From Lama guanicoe (Eukaryota), in assembly GCA_013239625.1 (NCBI GenBank), contig MU053811.1:10823-61610 (forward strand): a DNA stretch of 50,788 nucleotides, written 5' to 3'. The first letter of the stretch is position 1. Every line of letters begins with the position of its first letter. The position numbers and the translations under genes are program-made. Positions 2,533 through 46,760 of the stretch are shown one piece after another. Below the pieces are notes generated by a model, which was not told the DNA's origin, made no database searches, and saw nothing but the letters and a program-made list of their open reading frames with translations.

Positions 2533-3099
2533 CTCGTTGACCACTCAAGAAATGTGATGTGAAGATCAATGATTTACACAGGAGTACAACATTCACTAGG
2601 TCGTGGATTTAGAATCAGAGAAAAATCATTTGAGAAAGATTGACAGAATGTAGCTTTAATGCGAATTTAAGTATTCTTAACTTTCAGTAAATCATCTTCC
2701 CCTACTTATCACTTCACCCAAGTTTAAAAGATGTTTGAGAACAGGGATGAGTGTGCCAGGAATCTGTGACCCAATAACCTAAAATGTCACCTAGGAAAAC
2801 GAGGGGAGTAACACATTTTTAAAAAGCGTGGTGAGGATTGCGGGGCCACAGCCAACTCCAGACTAAGAAGCTCTGAGTAATAGCTTTCCTGCCTGCCTGG
2901 GGCATCAGCTGATGTGAAAATCCACCCAGAAAACTCACTGTCCAGCAGCTCTTCCATAACACAGGCTACAGTTTCTCAGAATTAATAATTGCGTCCAGTA
3001 ACCTCTTCGCTGAAGAATAAAGACAAAGAAGAACAAGAGAGTTCTGCCCCTCCACAGGGGAGAGCCCAGACCTTAGGCTGCATGCACTGCGCCCACCTC

Positions 3100-5150
3100 C
3101 CAGGAGAAGAATAAACTGGAAAAGGGCTTTCTGCGAAACTGGGGCAGCAAAGGTTGAGATGGGAACAAATTGACCAGCTGGCCAGGGACAGCACCCTCCG
3201 TCGCTGCCTTGGCGGCTGCCTCAGCCCCCTCAGCCCATCCTGCCCACCTCCGGTGGCAAAGCTGTCAGGGAAACTGCTTTGCGACCTGGAGCAACAGAGG
3301 CTGCCCTTAGGCCAAGCTGCGGAAAAGATGGGAGCTAAACCCCCAGCTCCCAAGCAGCAGGCTCCATACCCTCGCCAACACCCCGCGGCTCCCGCACCCT
3401 TCTGCAACCCCGAGGAAATATGGCCGAAGAAGTGTGACCTGGGAAACAGGGGCAGCAGAGGCCGCCCCCATGTCAGGCCTCCAGAGAGATTGGTGCTTAT
3501 CCTCCAGCTCTCAAGGGGCAGCCCCCTGTCCTCTCCACCCCCTGATCTCACGGCGCCCAACTCCCAGGAGCAACCAGACCCGGTGTGGGGTGTCAGGCGA
3601 ATCTTGCGCGGGAGAGGACGTCCCCAGGCCAGGTCAGGGGAGAGGAGAAGAAGTGGCCCCATTAGGCGGGGCAGCCGGCCGTCGCAACTACCTCTGCCCC
3701 TCGACCGCATCGAGCCTGTCTCCCAGGAGCAAGCTGACCTGGAGACGGGCATCCGGCTTCTTGGGCAGCAGAGGATGCCCCCAGGATTGGCCGCGGGGAA
3801 GAGGAGAGCAGATTGACAGGCTCCGCGCTGCAGGTCTTCTACCCCCGCCGTCGCCACCCCCGCACCTTAAAGGCACCGCCCAGGGTGCCCCTCCCCCAGC
3901 AGGCTGAGTGGGACAGCTGCATCTGGTGATCTGGGACAGGAGAGGCCACTCCCACACCAGGCCATCGGGGAGACGGGAGCCAATCCACCAGCTCCCCAAG
4001 GCAGCCCCTACCCCCGCAGCAGCCACCACTCTTGCCCCTGACCTCACAGTGGCCTCCTCTAGGGAGCAGGCTGACCTGGAGATGGACGTCCGGCGAACTT
4101 GAGCAACAGGGACCGCCCCCAGGGCAAACCATGGGGGAAGTGGGAGCAAATGGACAAGCTCCATGGGAAAACCTACCGTTGCTGCCACCACCCCCAAAGT
4201 ACCAAGTCCAACTCCCGGGGTCAGGCCGAGTAGGATACACGCGTCTCGTAACACAAGGCAACAGCAACCGCCCCCAGGACAAGACGCGGGGAAGATGGGA
4301 GCAAATGGGCCGCTCCCCCGCTGTAGGCCCCCGACCACCACCACCCCTGCACCCTGACTACACTGCCTCCCGCCCCCAGCAGTCAAAGTGGGACGGGGTG
4401 TCCCGGGACCTGGAGAAGCAGAGGCCGCCTTCATGCCACGCGGTGCAGACATGGAGCTAATCCACAAGCTCCTCCGGGGCAGCCTCCCTATGCCCGCAGC
4501 CACCACCTTACCAGCCCCCTGACCGCACCGCACCCATCTCCCAGGAGCAAGCTCACCTAGAGTCGGACCTCAGGCAAATCTCCGGGCGGCAGAGGTCGCC
4601 CCCAAGCCAGGCCGCGGGGGAGAGAAGAAATGGAGCAGCTCCCTGGAACACATCCCCTGCCCCTGCCGCCTCCGCCGCCGCCTCCCAGAAGCAAGCTCAT
4701 CTGGAGACCCGCTTCCCGCCTCTAGGGCAGTAGAAGCCGCCCCTGGCTCCGCCGCCGGGAGGAGCGGAGCGAATTGACCGGCTCCCCCGCGGCAGCTCCC
4801 CTCCCCCCGTGGGCCCCGCACCTTAACGGCGCCGCCCCCATTCCCCATTCAGGAAGCTGAGTGGGACAGGCGTGTTCGGCGACCTGGGGAAGCAGAGGCC
4901 GCTCCCAGGCCCAGCAGCCAGGACAAGGCAGCTATTCCACCCGTTCGCCAGGGGCAGCCCCGCTCCTCCCCTCTGCCGCTGCCGCGGCCCGCTGATCTAA
5001 CCGCCCCACCTACCAGGAGCAAGCTTACCTGGAGTCCAACATCTGGCGAATCTCCGGCGGCCAATCCCCACCCCAGGCCAGGCTGCAGGGAAGAGAAGAA
5101 ATCGACCGGCTTGCCCGGGCAGCCTCCCAACCTCCACCGCTCCCGCCGCC
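3100..5150. repeat. GC/CpG-rich diverged tandem array, ~13 monomers of ~140-170 bp with ~480-bp higher-order period
   Basis: A CAGAGG-like landmark within ...caggagcaagctgacctggag...cagaggccgccc...ggccgcggggaaga... recurs at about 3148, 3295, 3456, 3612, 3769, 3940, 4107, 4254, 4419, 4590, 4731, 4893 and 5061. Confidence 0.85.
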
Positions 5151-5473
5151 GCCGCCTCTGCCGCCCCAAAGCATTGCAATAGCCTCCCGGGGTCAGGCTG
5201 ACTGCAAGGATGTGCACTTGCCTTCTAATCCTGGCCACGTCCCTGAGCACCTCCCTGCATCCCTACACTCCATGCACCTCTGCTACTCTCTGCTATTCTG
5301 CTTCCCTCCACCCCCGCATCCCCTGAAATGCCTGCGCCCTCCACAGCCCCTGCACCCCTGTCACCAGTTACACTTTTGCACTGCTTACACTCCTGCACCC
5401 CTGCATGTCCCACACACCACCTCTTGGGCCTTTGGCAGAGTCTCTGCTGTTAGACCAATGCACAGTGACTCAC

Positions 5474-9764: not shown

Positions 9765-12190
9765 CATTCATTCAGCAAATCTGTATAAGCTCCTACTACA
9801 TATGGGAATCTAGTAACTATACCCATTCCCAAGGGTCTTGGGCTTTATTAATCAACAAATTAGACACGACTCCCCATCACTGGGGGCTCAGAGTTTTAGC
9901 AGAGGAAACAGGCAGCATGTTTGGGGTAGCAAGAGCTTGGGGAAAAATAAGGGTGATATGAGCAAACTCAGGTGATGGTGGTGGGGTGCGAGGCAGGGAG
10001 GAGGGAAGAAGGCAATCCTGGCAGATCTCACGGAGTAATGAACTTGAAGCAGCATAGATCCGGAGGAAGAAGGAAGAGCCGGAGCCAGAGGCCCCCAGAG
10101 TGAGGGGGAGAGTGTGGGCAGAGAGGCAGAGAACGCCAGGTCCTGGAAGACTTTGGGACGACTTTGGCTCCTAATGAAATGGTGACCCTTTTAGTGAGTT
10201 TTGATGGGATGGGTGATGTCCAATTTATGCTTTTGTTTTGGTTTTTTGGGGGGAGGGTAATTTATTTATTTTCGTGAAGGTGCTGTTGTTTGAACCCAGG
10301 ATCTCATGCATGCTAAGCTGCACCCACTCCCTCAATGTATGCTTTTATAGGCTCCCTCTGACTCTGTGCGGATGAGATTGTAGAAAACAAAGATGGAAGA
10401 AGGCGGCTATTTGGTGTCCAAGAAGGGGCAGAAGGTGGCTCCTAGGAGGCTGGGGAACAGGGAGTACGTGGTTAATGAACAGAGAGTAGCCAGAATTTTC
10501 TAACAAGCTGGATTTGCTGTGTGTCTGTGTGTGTGTAAGAGAAAGAGAGAGAAAGAACATGGTTCCAACATCTGGACCTGGAAAATGGGATGGATATCCT
10601 CTCCATCCACAGGGGATGAGAAAAGATGGGGCTGAGCAGGTGGAAAGGGGCTGGAATCAGCTCAGATCTTCAATGTCATGGTTAAGGAGACTTAGATATT
10701 GCCACAGAAATGCCTAATAGGTAGAGGAGTCTGGGGTTTTTTTTTCCTTTCTTTTTAACATTAAAAAATATACTTTAAATGTATTAATTTTATTATGTTA
10801 ATGAATCTGGAATTTTATTTCATGCCAAGGTGTATGTTATAATAGCCAAATGGAAAATATATCAGAAAAGGTGAGAAATGAGGGCTTTCACATAAACTGA
10901 CTGTCCATAACTTAGATAAAATTTCAATAAAACCAGTCTTCAGTACAAAATCCTCATCTTGGTGTTACATAAAATTAAATGAAAAAGGACTATGTTGATG
11001 TATTATTATTTCATGTTACATAATAGCTCCAAACAAACACACTGTTTAACTATGAGGCTTGTAGAAATACTATTCACTTTATTGACATAAAAACCGAAAT
11101 GCAGAAAGGTTCTAAGGTAGAATAAGCATCTTAGTGGAAATAAAAGTGATCTGAGCATTTTACATGGTATGTATGGACTGATTCAAAATTTGGAAAAGTA
11201 ATTTACACAGTAGAAAATATGTATGAATGTGAAAGCAAGATGAATGAAAGAAAAAGAATATGAGTATCAGGGAGAGAGTTCCAAATGGAAAGGGCCAATC
11301 AGGGAGATTTGGACAAATCGAGAAATTGATGGTATGTCAATTTCCAAGTCTGGTTGCTTCCACCAAAGTTATAGCAGAGAGATAGTGGAGAGACCCAGGA
11401 CACACCTCCGGGGCACATTTGCAGTAAATGTTTGGAAAAAAGAGGAGACTTTGGCAAAAGACCAGCCAGTGGATCGAAAGCAGAGCGATGGGCTGGAGGC
11501 CAAGTAAAGCAGGAACACGGGGGAGGAGGGATGGAAGGGCTGGGTCAAATGCTGCCAAAGGGCCACGCATGATGAAGACTAAAAACTGACCACTATATTT
11601 AGCAACGTGGGGTCACTGATGGCCTTCACAGAGCAGTTTCCATAGAGTGAGGGATCAGGGGAAAAGCCAGAGTGGGTGCAAATGGGAATGGCTCAAGAGA
11701 ATATGCAGACAGTGAGTTTAAAGTACTAATTAAAGATTTGCTGCAAAGACATGGGGTGGCAATTGGTGGGGGCGAATTAGGGTCAAAGAGTGCTGTTTGT
11801 TTCTTTTAAGAGGATGGACTTTTATATACTGAAAAGAGACAAGTAGCAGGAGAACAAAATAGATGAGGTAGTGACAGAGAGGATGGATGTAGGAGTGACA
11901 GCCCGGAGAAGATTGGATGGATGGCCCCCCTGGCGACTTTTGGATGATCTGGCTATCGATGTCACCTGTAATAAGAGGTGGGGCAGCGAGAGTGAGGTCA
12001 CAGACATCAGAAGGCCAGCGTATGTGCTGGGATTTGCTGGTGAAAGTTCTCTTCTGTTGGCTTCAGTTTGCCTGGTCAAAGTAGAAATGTAAACTTACCA
12101 GCTGAGGAACGAGGAGGAAGAGTTACTGGAGTCATGAGCAGAAGATACAAAAGAGCCTTCAGGGACAATGGGACAGTGAAAAGAGCAAGG
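9765..12190 (-). mobile_element. Fragmented LINE-2 remnants with later insertions
   Basis: L2 3'-end signature cattcattcagcaaat at ~9765 and L2-like purine-rich tracts at 10.4-10.7 kb and 11.5-12.2 kb; bounds approximate. Confidence 0.55.
10232..10334 (-). mobile_element. Degenerate tRNA-derived SINE (Vic-1-like, camelid type)
   Basis: T-rich tail followed by ttgaacccaggatctcatgcatgctaagc, the reverse complement of the B-box region; same family as the copies at 30.4 and 47.9 kb. Confidence 0.7.
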
Positions 12191-12779
12191 GGAGACGGGG
12201 GGGGAGTGTGCTCTCAGAAAGTTACATTTTATCTTTGAGGTCCCCAAGTGTTGGATGTGTGATTGCCCTTCCTACTGTCTAAGAAATAAAAATTAAATAC
12301 TGTTCAGGGAAAATGCTATTTCATTCTAAGAGGCTGCCTGTTTCTCAGGAATGGTCATCTTAAACTGCAAACATTACAAAAATGTTGAAAAGAAGAACTT
12401 GTGTACCCAATGACCCACTATTTTCTTAAATTTAGTTGCTATTAGTTCCCCTATCAATACCACAGAACCGATACTGCCTAGGATGGAGATACATCGATGC
12501 TTAAATGGAAATGAAATCTGTATCTTTTTCCTAAAATCCATGACTTCCTTAACATCCCATTCCCCTTGGAATTTAGGGGTGTCCTGTATAAGAAATGAGA
12601 AACAGTTTGAGAAAATCCCGGCTCAGAATTACACAGCACAACCTCAGCTCAGAAATGTACAGCCGTAAAAATGTTTAGAAGCAAAACTCCGTAACTACTC
12701 TTAAAGTATTTTGCAAACATGGGCCTGCCCAGATGTTTCCAAACTAGAAAGGTACTCCAATCACTTGACCGGTACGGGA

Positions 12780-27689: not shown

Positions 27690-28320
27690 GAATTTTCTTT
27701 AAAAACTGAAAATAGACTTAACTCATGATCCAGCCTTCCCACTCCCAGGCATATGTCAGAAGAAAACTCTAATTCAAAATTCACATGCACCTCAATGCTC
27801 ACAGCAGCACTATTTATAATAGCCAGGACATGGCAACAACCCAAATGTCCATCAACAGCTGACTGGATAAAGATATAGTAGTATATTTATACAAAGGAAT
27901 ACTACTCAGCCATTAAAAAGAACAAAATAATGCCATTTGCAGCAACATGGTTGGACTTGGAGATAATCATTCTAAGTGAAGTAAGCCAGAAAAAGAGAAA
28001 AATGCCATATGCTATCACTTATATGTGGAATCTAAAAAAAGACACAAATGAACTTAACTATAAAAGAGAAACAGACCCACAGACATAGAGAAACAAACTT
28101 ACGGTTACCAGGGAGAGAAGGGGATGGGAAGGGATAAGTATGGGTTTTGGAAAAGTGTCCCTCTTGGGGAGTTATGGAAATGTTAGCTATCTTGATTTTG
28201 GTGATGGTTTACTAGGTGTAGACATCTATCAAATTCTTCAAATAGTAAATGTGAAATACGTGTAATTTACTATACAGGAATCATACCACAATAAAGGTGT
28301 CTGTAAAAAAAAAAACAAAA
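27690..28320 (+). mobile_element. LINE-1 3' portion (ORF2 end and 3' UTR; the distal part looks older)
   Basis: cacatgcacctcaatgctcacagcagcactatttataatagccaggacatgg...gccatttgcagcaacatgg...ctaagtgaagtaagccaga; A-rich end at ~28305-28320. Confidence 0.85.
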
Positions 28321-28429
28321 GATTGGCGGCATTGTGTCCTACGATTTTATGTGTCTTTAGTGAGTGGGTCTTCAAGTTTCTGGTCTGCCATATATTCTGA
28401 ACCAGAAGTGCCCTCCTTCCCTTTTCTTT

Positions 28430-33664: not shown

Positions 33665-34675
33665 TTGAAAAGACATCTTTGAATAAGTGTGTAAGGGTTT
33701 TAGTGGGATGAACTGTACGGATCAGAACTTCTGGGGAAGAGATGCATCTGTGGCCCTTTGATGCGTCCTGCACCCTGTTCTCCTGAAGAGGAGCGTCCCT
33801 TCACTCTTCCCTCCAGGGGATCTGCTGGAGCCTCTGCCTGCTTACATTGTCACCAGGGCTGGTTGTCACCTGACTAAAGACCCGCCAGTGTGAACCAGTG
33901 CTGTCAGTGTTTCCCTCTGCCTGTGTTGTCACCTGAGAGGTCAAGCATCTCTAACACACACTGGCCACCTGCATTGCCTCTCATTGGAACTGCCCATGTC
34001 TGTTCTGTTTCTGTTTAGAACATTGGGTTTGGAAACATTTTTGGAATACAGGGATGGGAAAACTTTCTCCAACTTTGGGTTATGAGGAATGCATTTTCCA
34101 GGTTGTGGTTTGTCTTTCAAGCAGTTTTTCTGGGCTTTTTCTATTTTTTTTGATTTGTTTGGTTTTTTTTTGCCACAGGAAAAGCTAAGCATCTCCCTTC
34201 TGTCTTCCGGCTGTGGTGTCACAGGGGGAACAGCAGTGTCTACCCTGAGATTATGCACAGAGTTACTAAAAGGGCTCCATTTTGTACATCACATCATTAA
34301 TACCCCTGGATATCCCCTGAAAATAATAAAAATGCTGTTTCAAGTGAAAACAAAAAAATCACCAGCCCCAGGTGAAAATATGTGGGCAGGCACAAAAAGC
34401 CAACTTTCATAAAGTTTCATTGAAAGGGAACACCCAGGAGAGGTAAAGACACGCAGACAGAAAGAGGACTTGGGGTTGTCAGGGGCTGGGTGAGGAGGGA
34501 GGGGAGTGCGCTCTCTGGATCCATGGTTTCACTTTGAGGAAAGAAATAGTGTGAAACTAAATGGTAGTGATGGTCGCACAACATTGTGAATGCCCCTAAT
34601 TCTCCTGAATTGCACAATTTAAAAGGGGAAAAGTCTATATTTTATTTCATAAAACTCTAAAAAGAAAAATAAAGG
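33665..34675 (+). repeat. Copy 1 of a ~1-kb diverged direct duplication (offset ~3626 bp), built on old L1 remnants
   Basis: gatgcatctgtggccctttgat (33741) vs gatgcacctgtggcactttgat (37366); collinear through to tttatt at 34641 vs 38268. Confidence 0.9.
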
Positions 34676-35005
34676 ATGCCATAAATGATGTGAAACAAAC
34701 AAAGGAAACTAAAGAAAACCAAACAAAAACATCTCCAGCGGAAGGGACGTCAAGTTTGGGGGGGTACTGACGGTGAGATTTTGGAAAACATTTTGGAGAA
34801 GAAGGTGTGGGTGGCTGCAGAGGGGGCTCTGCCCCAGGTGGTGGTGATGCCTGAACTGGTTCTCCTTTGCCCAGCAGTCCAGGTGCAGAAGCAGGTTCAG
34901 GAGGAGCTGCAGGAGCGGCATGAGGGAGCTCGGGGTCTCCTCCTGGATCCAGATCGTCCTTTTTTTGGCCTCTGATATCTTCCCCTGCCCCTGCCTCCTC
35001 TGTAA
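34647..35005 (-). pseudogene. RALGDS-like gene, terminal exon 3: Pro/Ala-rich linker plus hydrophobic tail; frame open
   Basis: aatAG| then VTEEAGAGEDIRGQKKDDLDPGGDPELPHAAPAAPPEPASAPG...PPKLDVPSAGDVFVWFSLVSFVCFTSFMASFIFLFRVL*; TGA at 34649-34647 is followed immediately by AATAAA (34646-34641). Confidence 0.65.
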
Positions 35006-35311
35006 CTATTACATGTGGAGAGAGTTTTAATTCTTGTGGAAGAGCTTATGCTGTGAGAGAGGAAAAATTTATCCATCTGCCTCCTTTTCAATGTGTCTCT
35101 TGAAAGACAGAAACCTTCCCAGACCTTTCCAGACAGCTCCCACCCAGAAAGTGCCCACAGGATGTGTTCTGTGACTGAATTTTTCCAGACAGGTGGTCTG
35201 AGGCCATTCTTTGCTCTGGTCCCAACAGTAGCCTCTGGGGACCCCTCCCTGTGTGGCCCAGCCCTCACCCCTCCCTCACCTACACACAGGCACCAGTCCT
35301 GCCTTTCTGAG

Positions 35312-35614
35312 CTTCGGGATCTGCTTCAGGGGCTCCTGGTCCTCCACCTGACTTGCAGCGAGGTGGGCACGGTGCTCCACGTCAGACCCGGGTGTGCTGA
35401 GCTACCCGTCAGCCCCAGGAAGAGCCCTGGGTGATGTCTGGGTCGGAGGCTTGCCCAACTGATTTCTGGGCCATGGTGGTGGGGACCCCTCATTATCCAG
35501 ACCCACCTGGAGCATGCGCTGGCCCTCAGAAGAGTAGCACACCAGCCTTTCACTTGGGGAGGGGGCGTTGGTGTTTGTATTCATCAGCTTCTGTTTAGTA
35601 TGTGGTATCTGGCT
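35312..35614 (-). pseudogene. RALGDS-like gene, exon 2 (degenerate REM-domain fragment)
   Basis: cattgcAG| SQIPHTKQKLM...NQLGKPP...DG*LSTPGSDVEHRAHLAASQVEDQEP resembles RALGDS QLNMPGSDLERRAHLLLAQLEHSEPIEAEPE. It has TAG at 35404-35402, a probable 1-nt deletion before EADPE and an apparently mutated donor; an alternative GTGAGG lies at 35279. Confidence 0.7.
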
Positions 35615-36020
35615 CTGCAATGACAGTGACCAGCTGCTGACCCGGCCTGGAAATCTCAGAGCCCTTTTCGGCCAGGAAAACTCCTGATTCTATCCACTCG
35701 ACCCTCTGCTGCCAGATCAGAAAGGGACCTTGTTCAGCTCAGACACCCGGGAGGGTATAGACATACCCAGAGAGCATGGGCTCCACCTCGGGCAGCAGGA
35801 CCCTTCCCCGGCTCTCCACATCCCAGCCAGCCAGCTTTGACCTGGGCTGTGGATGTTACCGGGCCCCCAGGCCATTGGCCTGCTCTTGCTTGAGGCAGAA
35901 ACCAATCCCCAACATGACTGCTCCACCTCCGCCAGCCAGGACAGGGCCGTGGGGCTACCTGGGTGGGATCTGAGTGGTGGCCCGGCCTGGGCGGGCCTGC
36001 CCTGGGCCTCCCTGTGTTAC

Positions 36021-36155
36021 CTTTGGGTCTCTCTGGCCAAAAGGCCAGAGATGCCTTAAGTGAGACCTGATCCAGCGCCGGCAGCGTTGGTACAGCCCCT
36101 CGCTGCGGGCTTTCAGGGGGCTGTGGCCTCAGGATAATGGGATGCAGCAGAACAT
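36021..36155 (-). pseudogene. RALGDS-like gene, first coding exon
   Basis: MFCCIPLS*GHSPLKARSEGLYQRCRRWIRSHLRHLWPFGQRDPK|GTAACA (45 codons). It resembles the MFxCC...LWPFxxR leader I recall from lineage-expanded 'RalGDS-like' genes. TGA at 36131-36129 is plausibly CGA>TGA. Confidence 0.7.
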
Positions 36156-37289: not shown

Positions 37290-38304
37290 GAAGAAAAATT
37301 ATCTTTGAGAATTGTGCAAGAACGTTGGTGGGATCTCCTCTAAGGATCAGCACTGCTAGGGAAGGGATGCACCTGTGGCACTTTGATGTATGCTGCACCT
37401 TGTTCTCCCGGAGAGGAGCGTCCATTTGCTCTTCCCTCCAGGGGACCTCCTGGGGCCTCTGCCTGCTCACGTTGTCACCAGGGCTGGTTGTCACCGGGCT
37501 AAAGACCTGCCAGTGTGATGGTGGCCAATGCTGTCTCTGCAGTCTGTCCATCTGCCTGTGTCCTCACCTGAGAGGTCGAACATCTCTAGCAGACACTGGC
37601 CACCTGCACTGCCTCTCGTTGGAACTTTCTGTGTGTGTTTTGTTTCTTTTTAGAACACTGGGCTTCAAGATGTTTTTGGACCACAGGGATGTGAAGGTCT
37701 TCTCCGACCTTGGGTCATGAGGAAAGGTTTTTCCAGGCTGTGGTTTCTCTTTCCAGCTGTCTTTCTTGGCCTTTGTTTTCTGTTTTTGTTTGGTTTTATT
37801 TTGCCACAAGAAGAGCTATGCATCTCCCTTCTGGCTCTGGTTTCACACTTAGAACAGCAGTGCCTACCCCAAGATTATGCCAGAGTTACTAAAAGGGATT
37901 CATTTGGTACATCTCATCTTTAATCCAGCTGGTTTTCCCCTCAAAATAGAAAAATGCTAGTTCACGTGAAAACAAACAAAATTTCACCCATCCCTACTTA
38001 AGATATGTGGGCAGACAAAAAATAAAATGCCACCTTTTATATGATTTCATTGATAGGGAACCTCCAGGATAATTAAAGACATAGAGAGAGAAAGGGGATT
38101 AGGGCTTGTCATGGGCTGGGGGACGTAGGACGTGGGGTGCTCTTTGTATACAAGCTTTTACTTTGAGGAAGGAAATAGTCTGAAACAAGTGGTGCTGGTC
38201 TCACAGCATTGTGAATGCAATTAATGCTCCTGAAAATTGCACAATTTAAAATGGGAAAAGGATAAAATTTATTCTTATAAACTTAATACAAAAATAGAAT
38301 ATAC
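37290..38304 (+). repeat. Copy 2 of the duplication, ending in the last 9 codons, stop and polyA signal of a sister RALGDS-like gene (minus strand)
   Basis: Minus strand 38304-38275 reads VYSIFVLSL*, then AATAAA at 38273-38268, homologous in position to SFIFLFRVL*AATAAA. Confidence 0.8.
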
Positions 38305-38595
38305 TATAATAGAAAAGAAAAAAAATCTGACTCCATAGAAGACCTGTTCTTTTGGCTTTAACCCTGTGCCCTCTTTTCTAGGCTTACTCTTACTAGCTCT
38401 GCACATTTTGTAAAACAATGTTGCCTATAGCCTGAAATATACAGGAGAACCTATTTTCAAGGCTCTGATCTTTAAGGAAATTTAGTTTTGCACTTATATA
38501 AAGACAACAAGTTGCAGAATAGAAAATAACTTTTGTTTTGTTAGAGGTTTTACAGAGGCACTATGACCTGGTTTACTTAGACAGCTGCAGACCAA
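38305..38595 (+). mobile_element. ERV LTR 5' half
   Basis: Starts tataatagaaaag...aaatctgactccata; homologous to the reverse complement of 38720-39008, which starts TGTaatagaaaag. Confidence 0.75.
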
Positions 38596-38596
38596 C

Positions 38597-39008
38597 ATAA
38601 TGGCAGACTTGGAGGACCATCTTCCCCAAGTCAGACTTCAGGCTCCTTTTCTACTAAACAGGGGAGGGGCTGTGTTTGGTTGTTGCAAACTTCTTGGTGT
38701 AGGATTTCTTTGTTCTTGGAATCTTTTGCAGCTCTCCACGTGGGTCAGATCATGGTGTTCCTGAAAAACCTGCAACAAAACAAACTTTTTCTATTCTGCA
38801 ACTTGTTATCTTTATAGGAGTGCAAAAGGGTTAATATCCTTAAAGTTCAGAGCCCTGAGAATAGGCTCTCCTGTTTATTTCAGGCTAAAGGCAACATTGT
38901 TTTACAAAAGGAGCAGATCTAGCAAGACTAAGCCTAGAAAACATGGCAGAGGGTTAAAGGAAAATGAACAAATCCAATATGGAGTCAGATTTGTACTTTT
39001 CTATTACA
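38597..39008 (-). mobile_element. ERV LTR 5' portion, inverted relative to its neighbour
   Basis: Minus strand starts TGTAATAGAAAAG and shares ttttgtaaaacaatgttgcct.tagcctgaaata and aacaagttgcagaatagaaaa with the plus copy; TATA-like agtagaaaaggagcc near 38650. Confidence 0.75.
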
Positions 39009-40189
39009 GTGCCTTTTGGTGATAGCTAAGAGGATGATTCCTGGGTGGGTCCTCCACTGTCCCAGGCTGGAGTTTAGGCAGGATCACTGCCAGATTCCCT
39101 ATGACTTTGGACCTGATCTCCCGGAGAGAAAGGGACAATTATTGGTTTAAAATTTCCTGTCAAAATCCCTTCAATTGCCTGTAAACTATACCACAGCAGA
39201 GGATGTCTCATTCACCGTCAACTACCAGTCTCCCCTGATGCAAGGGACCAGTGTTGCGGCGGGATCCATGGTGGCCTGGAGAGTGCACCTACCTACTTTG
39301 CTCTCCAGCCTTGGCTTCCTAACTTTGATGCTTTGAAATCTCCCGTCCCTCTTCCCTATGGCCTGGTGTGAATGAACAAGATCCCTGCACCCACCTGGGC
39401 TGAGCCCAAGCCACACACACAGCCCCATGCACACAGCCCACCATCTGCTGTCTAACCCTGGGCTCAAGTGGACCCTCTGAACTCCCCCACCCCAAAGGTC
39501 TGCGTGCCCAGTGTCTCCGCCCAAATGTTCCAGATCACCATCAGGACCATCACAAGGCCCACAGGCCAGTGGCTGGCAGCTTGGGATCACCCTGACCCAT
39601 CGGGGCAGATGAGACACAGGGTGAGGGGATCAGGGTGCCAGGGCGGGAATTGGTACCGCCTTCATCCCAGCCTGCCTCACCCTGTAGCTTCAGACATTAA
39701 CTATGAAGGTGCACACTAGGCTGGATCCCCCACTGGTGGCAGTAGTCATCATTACTGGAGCCCAGATTTCCCCACCCCAACCACAGGTTGAGGGGTGAGG
39801 GTGTCAGCTCAGAGTAGGGGTGCAATCAGAGTGAAGGGGATCCCATGGTGAGGGGGTATAGGTTGAGGAGTGTGGGGCCCAGAGTGGAACTGACCTGGCT
39901 GAGAGGTGAGGGGGACAGTTTCAGGATGTTGGGGGTCCTGTTGTGAGGCATGAGGGTGTGTAGGGACCATAGGTTAAGATCTAGCAGGACGGAGCGTCAC
40001 GGCACGGACCTTGGTGTGAGGAGAAGAAGCCCTGTCTTCAAGGTCTGGTGGGAAACTGGGCCTGGCCAGGGGTGGGAGGGTAGTAACAGGGAGGGGAAGG
40101 TGAGCAGGGGAAGTGGGGCTGGCAGGGTGTGGCGAGGCCCAGGGCAGTCGTGGTTCTAGTTAAGTGCCAGGACCCAGTCGGTGGTGGGG

Positions 40190-41090
40190 TGAAGGCTCTA
40201 GGGATGGAGACCGGCGGGACGAGCAGGAGGGGCGCCACATGGCTCCTCCCGGCCCCAGTGGCCAGGTCCGGTAAAGCAGGAGACCCACCTGAGCAGTTTG
40301 CGCTGCGGGCGGGAGGAGGAGGGGGGCGCACGCGCAGACGGACAGACGCACGGACGCTGGAACCCACCCAGAACGCGTGGAAGCTGGCGGCAGCCGGTGT
40401 CTCCTAGACCAGCTCCTGGAAGAGGAACACGGCCTGGGGTCTGGGCCGCCACTTGCCCTCGGCTGGGCTGCCGCTGCCGGGCAGTTAAGGGGGAGCTGCT
40501 GGGGGCGCGCTGCTCGGGGAGCCAGCGGGTGACGCCTGGGCTGTGCAGCTGAGGAGGCGCCCAGTGAGGGTTGCCGAGGTGAGGTCCCGGCCGCGCGTCC
40601 CGTTAGGACCCTGAGGCGGTTCCCAGCCGCCGCTGTGGTTCGTTGTAACCCCGCTATTAGTAGTCCCTGAACCCCGCGTTTCTGCCGCCGCTTAAACCCG
40701 GGTTTAGGAGAGCAGGTACAGCCCTAGGAGTTGGGAGGGCGCCGAACGGCTCTGGAGCATCTCCGATTGGCCCTCAGATCATGGCCTGCTCCCGGGAGGT
40801 GGGTGCGGTGCGGTCGCGGGGCCTCGGATGGAATGGGGGCTGCCCCATGAGAGTCCCTGGATTTGCTCCAATCTTCCCCGCGGCCTGACCTTGGGGACGA
40901 CCTCTGGAGCCCAAGTTTCGTGGGACACAGGTTACAGGTCAGTCTGCTTCTGGGAGGTGTTCGCGGTGCGATCAGTGTGCTGGGATGGCTGCAGCAGCAG
41001 CGGGAAATGGTCGCAACCCCCGCGCTCTCACAGGGCAGCCCCAATCCCGCCATCGCAGCCGCCGCCATTCCCTGACAGCACAGCACCCGC
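40190..41090 (+). promoter_or_regulatory. CpG island with candidate non-coding first exon (donor GAG|GTGAGG at 40578/40579)
   Basis: CpG-dense, GC-box-like gggcgggag at ~40306 and a strong 5' splice site; gene not recognised. Confidence 0.6.
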
Positions 41091-41097
41091 CTTCCAG

Positions 41098-41713
41098 ATG
41101 TGGGATTGCTGGGTCATAGGGTAAGTCTACTTTAAGTTCTTTGAGGGATTTCCATGCTTTCCATAATGACTACACCAAACTGGATTCCCACCAGCAGTGT
41201 AAGAGGGTACCCTTCCCTCTACAACCTCTCTAGCATTTATCATTCATGAACTTCTGAGCGATGGCCATTCTGACTGGTGTGAGCTGATACTTCATTGTAG
41301 CTTTGATTTCAATTTCTCTGTTTATTAGTGATGCCGGTCATATTTCATGTGCCTATTGGCCATGTGTGTCTTCATTGGAGAAATGCTTGTTTAGGTCTTC
41401 TGCTTATTTTTGGATTGAGTTGTTTGTTTTTTTGTTATTAAGTTGTATGAGCTGTTTATATATGCTGAAAATTAAGGCTTTGTTAGTCGTATCATTTGCA
41501 AATATTTTCTCCCATTCTTAGGTTGTTTCCTTTTGTTTTATTTATGGTTGCCTTTGCTGTGAAGAAATTTATGAGTTTAATTACGTCCCTTTTGTTTATT
41601 TTTTTCTCTTATTTCCATTGCTTGAGTAGATTGCCCTAGGAGAACGTTGCTAAGATTTATGTCAGATAATGTTTTGCCTATGTTTTCTTTTAGGAGATTT
41701 ATCATGTCTTGTC
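41098..41713 (-). mobile_element. LINE-1 ORF2 3' fragment truncated at both ends
   Basis: tgggattgctgggtcatagggtaag...ttcccaccagcagtgtaagaggg...gatggccattctgactggtgtgag; homologous to 17800-18425. Confidence 0.88.
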
Positions 41714-45829: not shown

Positions 45830-46760
45830 TGACCCATGATTCCCACATTTCTGTCTCCCGCTAGACTTTTTCTCTCCAACTCTGAACTCTTACAATCTTC
45901 TGCTGATTTGCCATCTTCATTTGGAACTCTGATATCGTAAAACCAACATGTGTAAAAACTGAATTCTTGGTCCTCCTACCCCCCAAACTGGTCCTTTCTG
46001 CAGCCTCCCCCATTCAGTTAGTGGAAACTTAATCCTTCCAGCTGCTTGGGTCAAAAAACTTGGAGTTATTCTGACTTTCACTGACATACCACATGAATTC
46101 TGTCAATAGATCTGGTTTAACACTGACTTTAAAACTTATCCTGAGCCCAGCCACTTCTCACCATGGCTCCTGCCTCCACTGCTGCTTCCCTACCCTGAGC
46201 CACTGTCCTCTCCTCCTGCACAGCCCTTCTCAGAGGCTTCCCTCCTTTCATCTCTGATCCGTTTTGCCTATTCTCACCCGGCAGTCAAGTGAGCCTTGAA
46301 AACATAAGTTAGATTGTGTCCTCCTTCGGCAGTGCCTCCCCAATTCACTCCGGGTAAAATCCACAGTCCTTACAACGTCCTCCAAGGCCATACAGGATCT
46401 GCACTGACCCTTCTCCACAGCTCCAGCCGTGCCCCCATTCTGGAACATGCGAGGTGCACGCTGCCCTTGGTGATGGTTATTCCATCCACCTGGGACTTGT
46501 CACCTCCTAGTCTTATTAATCTCCACCCTCCAGCTAGACTTCAACCAAGCTCCGTGAGGACAGGAATTTTGTTTTGTTTATTGATCTATTATTCCAAGTG
46601 CCTAGATTAGTCCTGGGTACATAGTAGGCTGTCAAAAAAAAAATTATAAAGCTCCGTGAGGACAGGAATTTTGTTTTGTTTATTGATCTATTATTCCAAG
46701 TGCCTAGATTAGTCCTGGGTACATAGTAGGCTGTCAAAAATTATTTGCTAAATAAATTAA
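45830..46760 (+). mobile_element. LINE-2 3' region
   Basis: aagctccgtgaggacagg...ccaagtgcctag...gggtacatagtaggc terminal motif, with upstream L2-like text. Confidence 0.7.
46547..46744 (+). repeat. Near-perfect tandem duplication, period 102 bp
   Basis: aagctccgtgaggacagg...gtaggctgtcaaaaa starts at 46547 and again at 46649; the copies differ only in A-run length (10 vs 5). Confidence 0.95.

Follow-up and report, generated by a model that had tools for sequence, protein, structure and literature searches.

A broken guanaco copy of a spliced camelid multicopy gene, likely truncated and RALGDS-like, with a hydrophobic tail of likely antisense LINE-1 origin

The guanaco locus is a pseudogene with three exons

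We analysed a window of 50,788 nt of Lama guanicoe DNA (the whole stretch under study). A minus-strand locus in this window is best explained as a damaged copy of a camelid gene that has three exons, is spliced and occurs in many copies. The gene is likely a truncated RALGDS-like one, and its hydrophobic tail a by-product of the T-rich antisense end of a LINE-1 (L1) element. We put the probability of this reading at about 60%. The original prediction had placed three minus-strand exons at the positions below, and the sequence confirmed them:

36021..36155, minus strand: exon 1, 135 nt (45 codons), with ATG and GT donor; encodes a basic di-cysteine leader
35312..35614, minus strand: exon 2, 303 nt, with AG acceptor; encodes PGSDVEHRAHL
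35310..35311, minus strand: dead exon 2 splice donor, CT where GT is expected
34647..35005, minus strand: coding part of exon 3, preceded by AG; acidic Pro/Ala linker, hydrophobic tail and TGA
34733-34650, minus strand: hydrophobic tail within exon 3, followed by TGA at 34649-34647
34641..34646, minus strand: AATAAA abutting the exon 3 stop, inside the L1-like segment described below

Exon 1 carries a TGA stop at codon 9. Exon 2 carries a TAG at 35404-35402 and has lost 1 nt near 35329, which shifts the frame. Exon 3 has no stop for 118 codons, counted from 35003, and runs through the tail to the TGA and the adjoining AATAAA; these features and the two upstream stops are all present as predicted. 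At position 35311, nearly all contig depth in each of the four sequencing runs compared has the G of a GT donor. The linker is ~50 residues shorter in the guanaco copy than in the alpaca paralogs.

Two stops, a frameshift of 1 nt and a dead splice donor make the guanaco locus a pseudogene. It had been proposed as a dead copy on account of both stops, and it is more damaged than that: the frameshift and the CT donor come in addition. Because its introns are retained, its lesions are disabling and intact paralogs exist elsewhere, it falls in the class of duplicated (unprocessed) pseudogenes.

Stop-free paralogs form a camelid family

Exon 1 was identical to alpaca proteins at 32 of 45 residues (E about 1e-17), and alpaca paralogs aligned to all three exons in the same order. 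The exon 3 query retrieved 2 alpaca proteins among 1475 candidates; an alpaca protein found in this way, used as query in its turn, gave 8 matches among 8000 candidates. The leader query gave 7 matches, all from alpaca, among only 12 candidates. Exon 3 had two matches among 1.84 billion representative proteins, both camelid. Thus, the protein homolog searches with exon 3, one paralog and the leader returned camelid matches only. After cluster look-ups, the family comprised 21 distinct stop-free sequences in 8 clusters: 20 from alpaca (RefSeq) and one fragment from wild camel (Camelus ferus). The alpaca accessions number at least 35, isoforms counted in, and lie on contigs of 7 differing sizes. 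Both the lineage-specific amplification and the existence of intact paralogs elsewhere, as had been proposed, are therefore borne out.

Stop-free paralogs are 227-381 aa long, and those that bear the tail are 311-322 aa. Named members include Vicugna pacos XP_072807712.1, XP_072796879.1, XP_072816812.1 and XP_072816817.1, labelled "uncharacterized protein", and Camelus ferus XP_032326716.1, labelled "predicted GPI-anchored protein 58"; the UniRef label of alpaca members is "Skin secretory protein xP2-like". These labels probably reflect Pro/Ala composition only. The leader, exon order and splice joints are common to the guanaco copy and to this xP2-like or uncharacterized multicopy family; the alpaca and camel RefSeq models have the Pro/Ala linker as well. 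The guanaco copy differs from these models in being broken, in its shorter linker and in a tail that lies in another frame. The locus had been put forward as an undescribed system. The family already has gene models in RefSeq, so it is uncharacterised rather than undescribed; we found no description of it in the open-access literature, of which supplements were covered for PMC7806701 only.

The leader is present in all 20 alpaca proteins, with cysteines at positions 3 and 4, and its net charge is +10 to +11 in the two proteins measured. Among four representative tail-bearing paralogs, identity is 0.96 in the leader, 0.88 in exon 2 and 0.61 in the tail. By these alignments, conservation is highest in the basic di-cysteine leader rather than in the tail. 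In four RefSeq models (P0007, P0006, P0019 and P0021), part of the Pro/Ala exon is read in another frame, so that the proteins end in Leu/Gln-rich or His/Pro-rich sequence.

Pfam detected no domain in any of the 21 paralogs and gave no match for four window segments; three Pfam matches to an LTI65 repeat in the paralogs were all sub-threshold and were rejected. In the PDB, the family alignment gave low-complexity matches only, and the exon 2 end gave none. Rfam gave no match, and none of 154 viral contigs matched the family. Candidate matches in the ESM Atlas were discarded, with no feature matched twice and TM values of 0.43 or less in the structure rows. One metagenome locus, retrieved from 158 pattern matches, was set aside as a chance match; it is apparently bacterial and its DNA is unlike that of the window.

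Paralog transcripts are spliced

Sequencing contigs from four runs (RNA runs and one DNA run) were compared with the locus at 80% likeness. The exon 2-3 joint occurred in RNA runs X15 and X17 (depths 289.5 and 534) and in X16, and the exon 1-2 joint in X16. X15 and X17 belong to one study, labelled reproductive system. The DNA run had no contig for the exon 2-3 joint among the matches listed. RNA contigs spanning the linker through the tail region, from paralogs, were also present. In X15, 208 of 280 RNA contigs were less than 95% alike to the locus, indicating that most derive from paralogs. The best share of the locus's words in any run was 0.30 among the 24 runs listed; none reached half, and thus nothing shows that the guanaco copy itself is transcribed. 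Contig depths of the DNA run add up to a very high total, which is not a copy number.

The joints proposed for the gene were 36021>35614 and ~35312>35005. Paralog RNA contigs contain both, with both introns removed. The exon 2 side of the paralog joints has 19 letters and that of the guanaco copy has 18, so that joining 35312 to 35005, as proposed, puts exon 3 out of frame. The exon 3 acceptor at 35005 agrees with the paralog RNA joints. A rival acceptor, the AG at 35051 farther upstream, has the stronger pyrimidine tract, but we discarded it since the paralog joints use 35005.

Splicing of both introns argues against an alternative in which the family is protein-silent passenger DNA, with duplications too recent for the open frames to have decayed and with selection on none of its parts. 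So does the uneven conservation of the protein, with the leader 96% identical among paralogs and other regions 61-88%. This alternative would account for the many C-termini and frames among the 21 models and for the coverage of introns in the RNA runs. It also agrees with the lack of a domain and with the ESM Atlas model of one paralog, which is of low confidence throughout (pTM 0.16, pLDDT 0.43). We regard it as improbable.

Two RNA contigs of ~3 kb (X15 record 11 and X17 record 24; window 34978-35353) cover intron 2 and the first part of exon 3 and extend ~2.7 kb past this match. They may come from longer paralogs with further exons, which would bear on the RALGDS link.

Relationship to RALGDS

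The leader presumably resembles that of mammalian RALGDS-like duplicates. We likewise take the 3′ end of exon 2, which is followed by the Pro/Ala linker, to resemble the REM C-terminal exon of RALGDS. On this presumed resemblance to RALGDS, RGL1-4 and the mammalian duplicates, the family is likely a truncated RALGDS-like offshoot. It differs from RALGDS and RGL1-4 in having no CDC25 domain, no RA domain and no detectable REM, and in ending in an L1-like T-rich segment.

The predicted lack of a GEF domain held: Pfam found the CDC25-type RasGEF domain in none of the 21 paralogs and in none of the four window segments. The C-terminal RA domain, a feature of RALGDS and RGL1-3, was likewise absent from paralogs and window segments in Pfam. 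REM (RasGEF_N) had no match in Pfam or the PDB with a fragment of ~30 residues, which is perhaps too short. Judged by its domains, the family does not belong to the Ral GEFs. Searches of Pfam, the PDB and protein homologs (including the 1.84-billion-protein search), of the Atlas, and of metagenome and viral contigs returned no RALGDS-family sequence.

These domain results could also mean that the gene is not derived from RALGDS and that the short motifs are alike by chance, and no RALGDS-like protein was among the 7 leader matches. That search drew on only 12 candidates and is therefore a weak negative. Chance likeness is very improbable in our estimation. The presumed likeness to RALGDS-like leaders and to the REM C-terminal exon agrees with derivation, and GEF-less RALGDS-like paralogs are reported in elephant in the part of PMC7806701 available.

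A truncated RALGDS-like origin, which we prefer, has a parallel in that elephant gene. According to the accessible part of PMC7806701, the elephant partial duplicate XP_023398370.1 has 313 aa and, unlike its RALGDS-like paralog, no RasGEF domain. In the same part it is described as disordered and proline-rich, with a retrotransposon adjoining the gene, features that liken it to the camelid family. It differs in that no transmembrane segment is predicted and a retroviral matrix-like domain is listed (PMC7806701, in part); the two are likened by description. Since a GEF-less RALGDS-like duplicate is thus in print, the general kind of gene is already known. In the part of PMC2873428 available, Rgl2 is the sole family member mentioned.

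The tail and 3′ flank align with an antisense LINE-1 end

The 3′ part of the gene resembles the end of an L1 element elsewhere in the window. The features concerned are:

27729..28322, plus strand: LINE-1 3′ end used as in-window reference; ORF2 C-terminus, 3′ UTR, AATAAA and poly(A)
34439..34706, minus strand: L1-like segment; runs collinearly with a LINE-1 3′ end and its poly(A), in antisense
33667..34684, no strand assigned: first copy of the 3′ flank block (copy 1), which forms a direct repeat of 1.04 kb
37293..38309, no strand assigned: second copy of the block (copy 2), 3.63 kb from the first and 77.6% identical to it, truncated within the tail region

The reference element matched LINE-1 ORF2p chains at E 1.7e-23. 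The L1-like segment extends over the second half of the tail and takes in the stop, the AATAAA and the 3′ flank. In its alignment with the reference, which was the one element on which the match rests, 153 of 246 columns were identical (62%, a match of moderate strength), from the poly(A) onward. The reference L1 was the best of 402 window segments for the gene's L1-like segment. None of 1000 block shuffles and none of 1000 local shuffles reached the alignment score; for the flank alone, none of 1000 local shuffles did so. The AATAAA of the reference L1 maps onto 34668-34673, within the tail codons.

Other comparisons gave less. A two-copy profile in nhmmer found the reference L1 only at E 1.8. 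The duplicate flank was matched or exceeded by 48 of 1000 shuffles and ranked the reference L1 sixth of 402, and two other L1-like pieces of the window gave no signal against the gene's segment. An unrelated segment near 12,200 also scored (z 4.0), and a short minus-strand segment at 12183-12241 resembles the 3′ flank of the gene (nhmmer E 0.0055).

From these alignments, the likely source of the tail and the AATAAA is an old LINE-1, read in antisense from its poly(A) end, and the T-rich stretch upstream of 34706 would then be the decayed poly(A). This likely L1 origin of the tail and the poly(A) signal is the element that our analysis adds. Copy 2 of the flank is likely the remnant of a neighbouring tandem gene unit. 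A palindromic element of ~700 bp at 38303-39010, with arms of ~290-330 bp that are 81-93% complementary, abuts the cut end of copy 2; it is possibly a transposon or LTR remnant.

The hydrophobic tail varies among paralogs and is predicted by composition

The tail is present in 8 of the 21 proteins and missing from 12 of the 20 from alpaca, and the camel model, which ends 9 residues into it, is truncated; the lack of a tail in some RefSeq models may reflect isoforms or the way in which the genes were modelled. By hydropathy only, the eight tail-bearers have a single C-terminal hydrophobic segment, with a 19-residue value of 1.85-2.59. Two of the three frames of the tail DNA in the guanaco copy also encode such a segment.

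For the second half of the tail, seven of the eight tail-bearers use a different frame from the one originally quoted; P0001 departs from the common tail frame and then comes back. In the quoted frame, the guanaco tail is identical to that of P0009 at 8 of 28 residues; in the other frame, at 17 of 22. Two subfamilies end the tail at differing points. The tail is thus not kept in frame across the family, and both frame and stop vary.

The tail DNA is 61% T. When its bases were shuffled 20,000 times, 45% of the shuffles gave at least 19 open codons with a Kyte-Doolittle value of at least 1.6, and 29% reached the observed 2.08. T-rich 84-nt stretches of the window gave such a segment in 15 of 29 cases (the tail and its duplicate included), compared with 70 of 1153 stretches overall. 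The hydrophobicity of the tail is that expected from its T content.

The original prediction had suggested a family possibly anchored to membranes by its tail. The hydrophobic C-terminal segment in part of the family stands; the case for a conserved anchor is weakened by the varying frame and stop, the composition and the antisense L1 match. Chance T-rich sequence, with tail and stop not conserved, had been named as the opposing outcome, and in part it is what we found.

We also considered whether the tail, although L1-derived, has since come under selection as a tail anchor in one subfamily, the guanaco copy and the tail-less arrays having decayed. The protein would then be a putative membrane tether in reproductive tissue, formed by a lipidated basic N-terminus, a long disordered spacer and a C-terminal helix. 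The hydropathy of the eight C-termini, the single frame of seven tail-bearers and the return of P0001 to that frame are consistent with selection, as are the spliced paralog contigs (depth 290-534) in two runs of the reproductive-system study. Read in the paralog frame, moreover, the guanaco tail is 68-77% identical to three paralogs, compared with 71% for the leader and 50-54% for exon 2. Such high identity would also be expected from selection on the tail; low CpG content may be an alternative cause. However, a tail under selection is hard to square with its absence from most alpaca proteins, with a camel model that stops 9 residues into it, with the differing stop points of the two subfamilies, with its place as the least conserved region among the four paralogs, or with the finding that composition alone predicts it. 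A selected anchor is therefore unlikely, though it is the strongest of the alternatives.

Proposed origin and fate of the gene

For a tail that arose as a by-product, the reading that we favour, we infer the following order of events. A RALGDS-like duplicate would first have lost its catalytic exons. Next, reading beyond the Pro/Ala exon would have entered the 3′ end of an antisense L1, a possible source of T-rich codons, the stop and the AATAAA; the T-rich codons would in turn make the tail hydrophobic. Finally, the unit may have spread through tandem and segmental duplication, with copies that kept, frameshifted or lost the tail.

Di-cysteine polybasic N-termini are an established membrane-binding type. 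The product of the intact copies would be an acidic, disordered chain; its basic leader with two cysteines is predicted to bind membranes through palmitoylation and charge. The tail, where present, would not be a selected anchor but a substrate that BAG6/GET triages, either to be degraded or to be inserted. Selection, if it acts on the protein at all, more likely acts on the leader than on the tail.

The available parts of two sources describe a comparable route. T-rich noncoding DNA yields hydrophobic segments in the "TM-first" model of PMC7005711; the same route from T-rich DNA appears in 10.1101/2022.07.20.500724, in which BAG6 triages hydrophobic C-tails to degradation or to membranes. As far as these parts go, the camelid tail is alike in being a hydrophobic C-terminus from T-rich DNA that shuffles reproduce. 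It differs from them in having been added to an old gene fragment, apparently from an antisense L1 poly(A), and in being known from sequence alone.

Large, spliced and restricted to camelids, this expanded family is named in databases after its composition alone, and its importance is modest. Its near-identical paralogs with and without the tail offer a test, in a mammal, of whether a hydrophobic tail derived from T-rich DNA acts as a degron or an anchor. A more far-reaching proposal is that camelids built and amplified a doubly membrane-bound protein, with a RALGDS-like lipidated leader, a tunable disordered spacer, and a tail anchor and poly(A) signal both exapted from one antisense LINE-1 end. 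We consider this speculative and rather unlikely. If true, the copies with, without and with a frame-shifted tail would form a natural series of tail-anchor birth in a mammal.

Other features of the window

Several features outside the gene were also recorded. A GC-rich degenerate array with a period of ~160 nt lies at 3000-5200, with an inverted piece at 40787-40983 that adjoins an L1-like fragment (41094-41713). The array, which had no Pfam match in two frames, may represent a minisatellite or 5′ monomers of L1. On the minus strand, an open frame of coding-like composition at 1441-1650 enters a masked stretch and matched nothing in Pfam or the PDB. A perfect 102-nt tandem duplication (100% identical) at 46547-46740 is either very recent or an assembly artefact.
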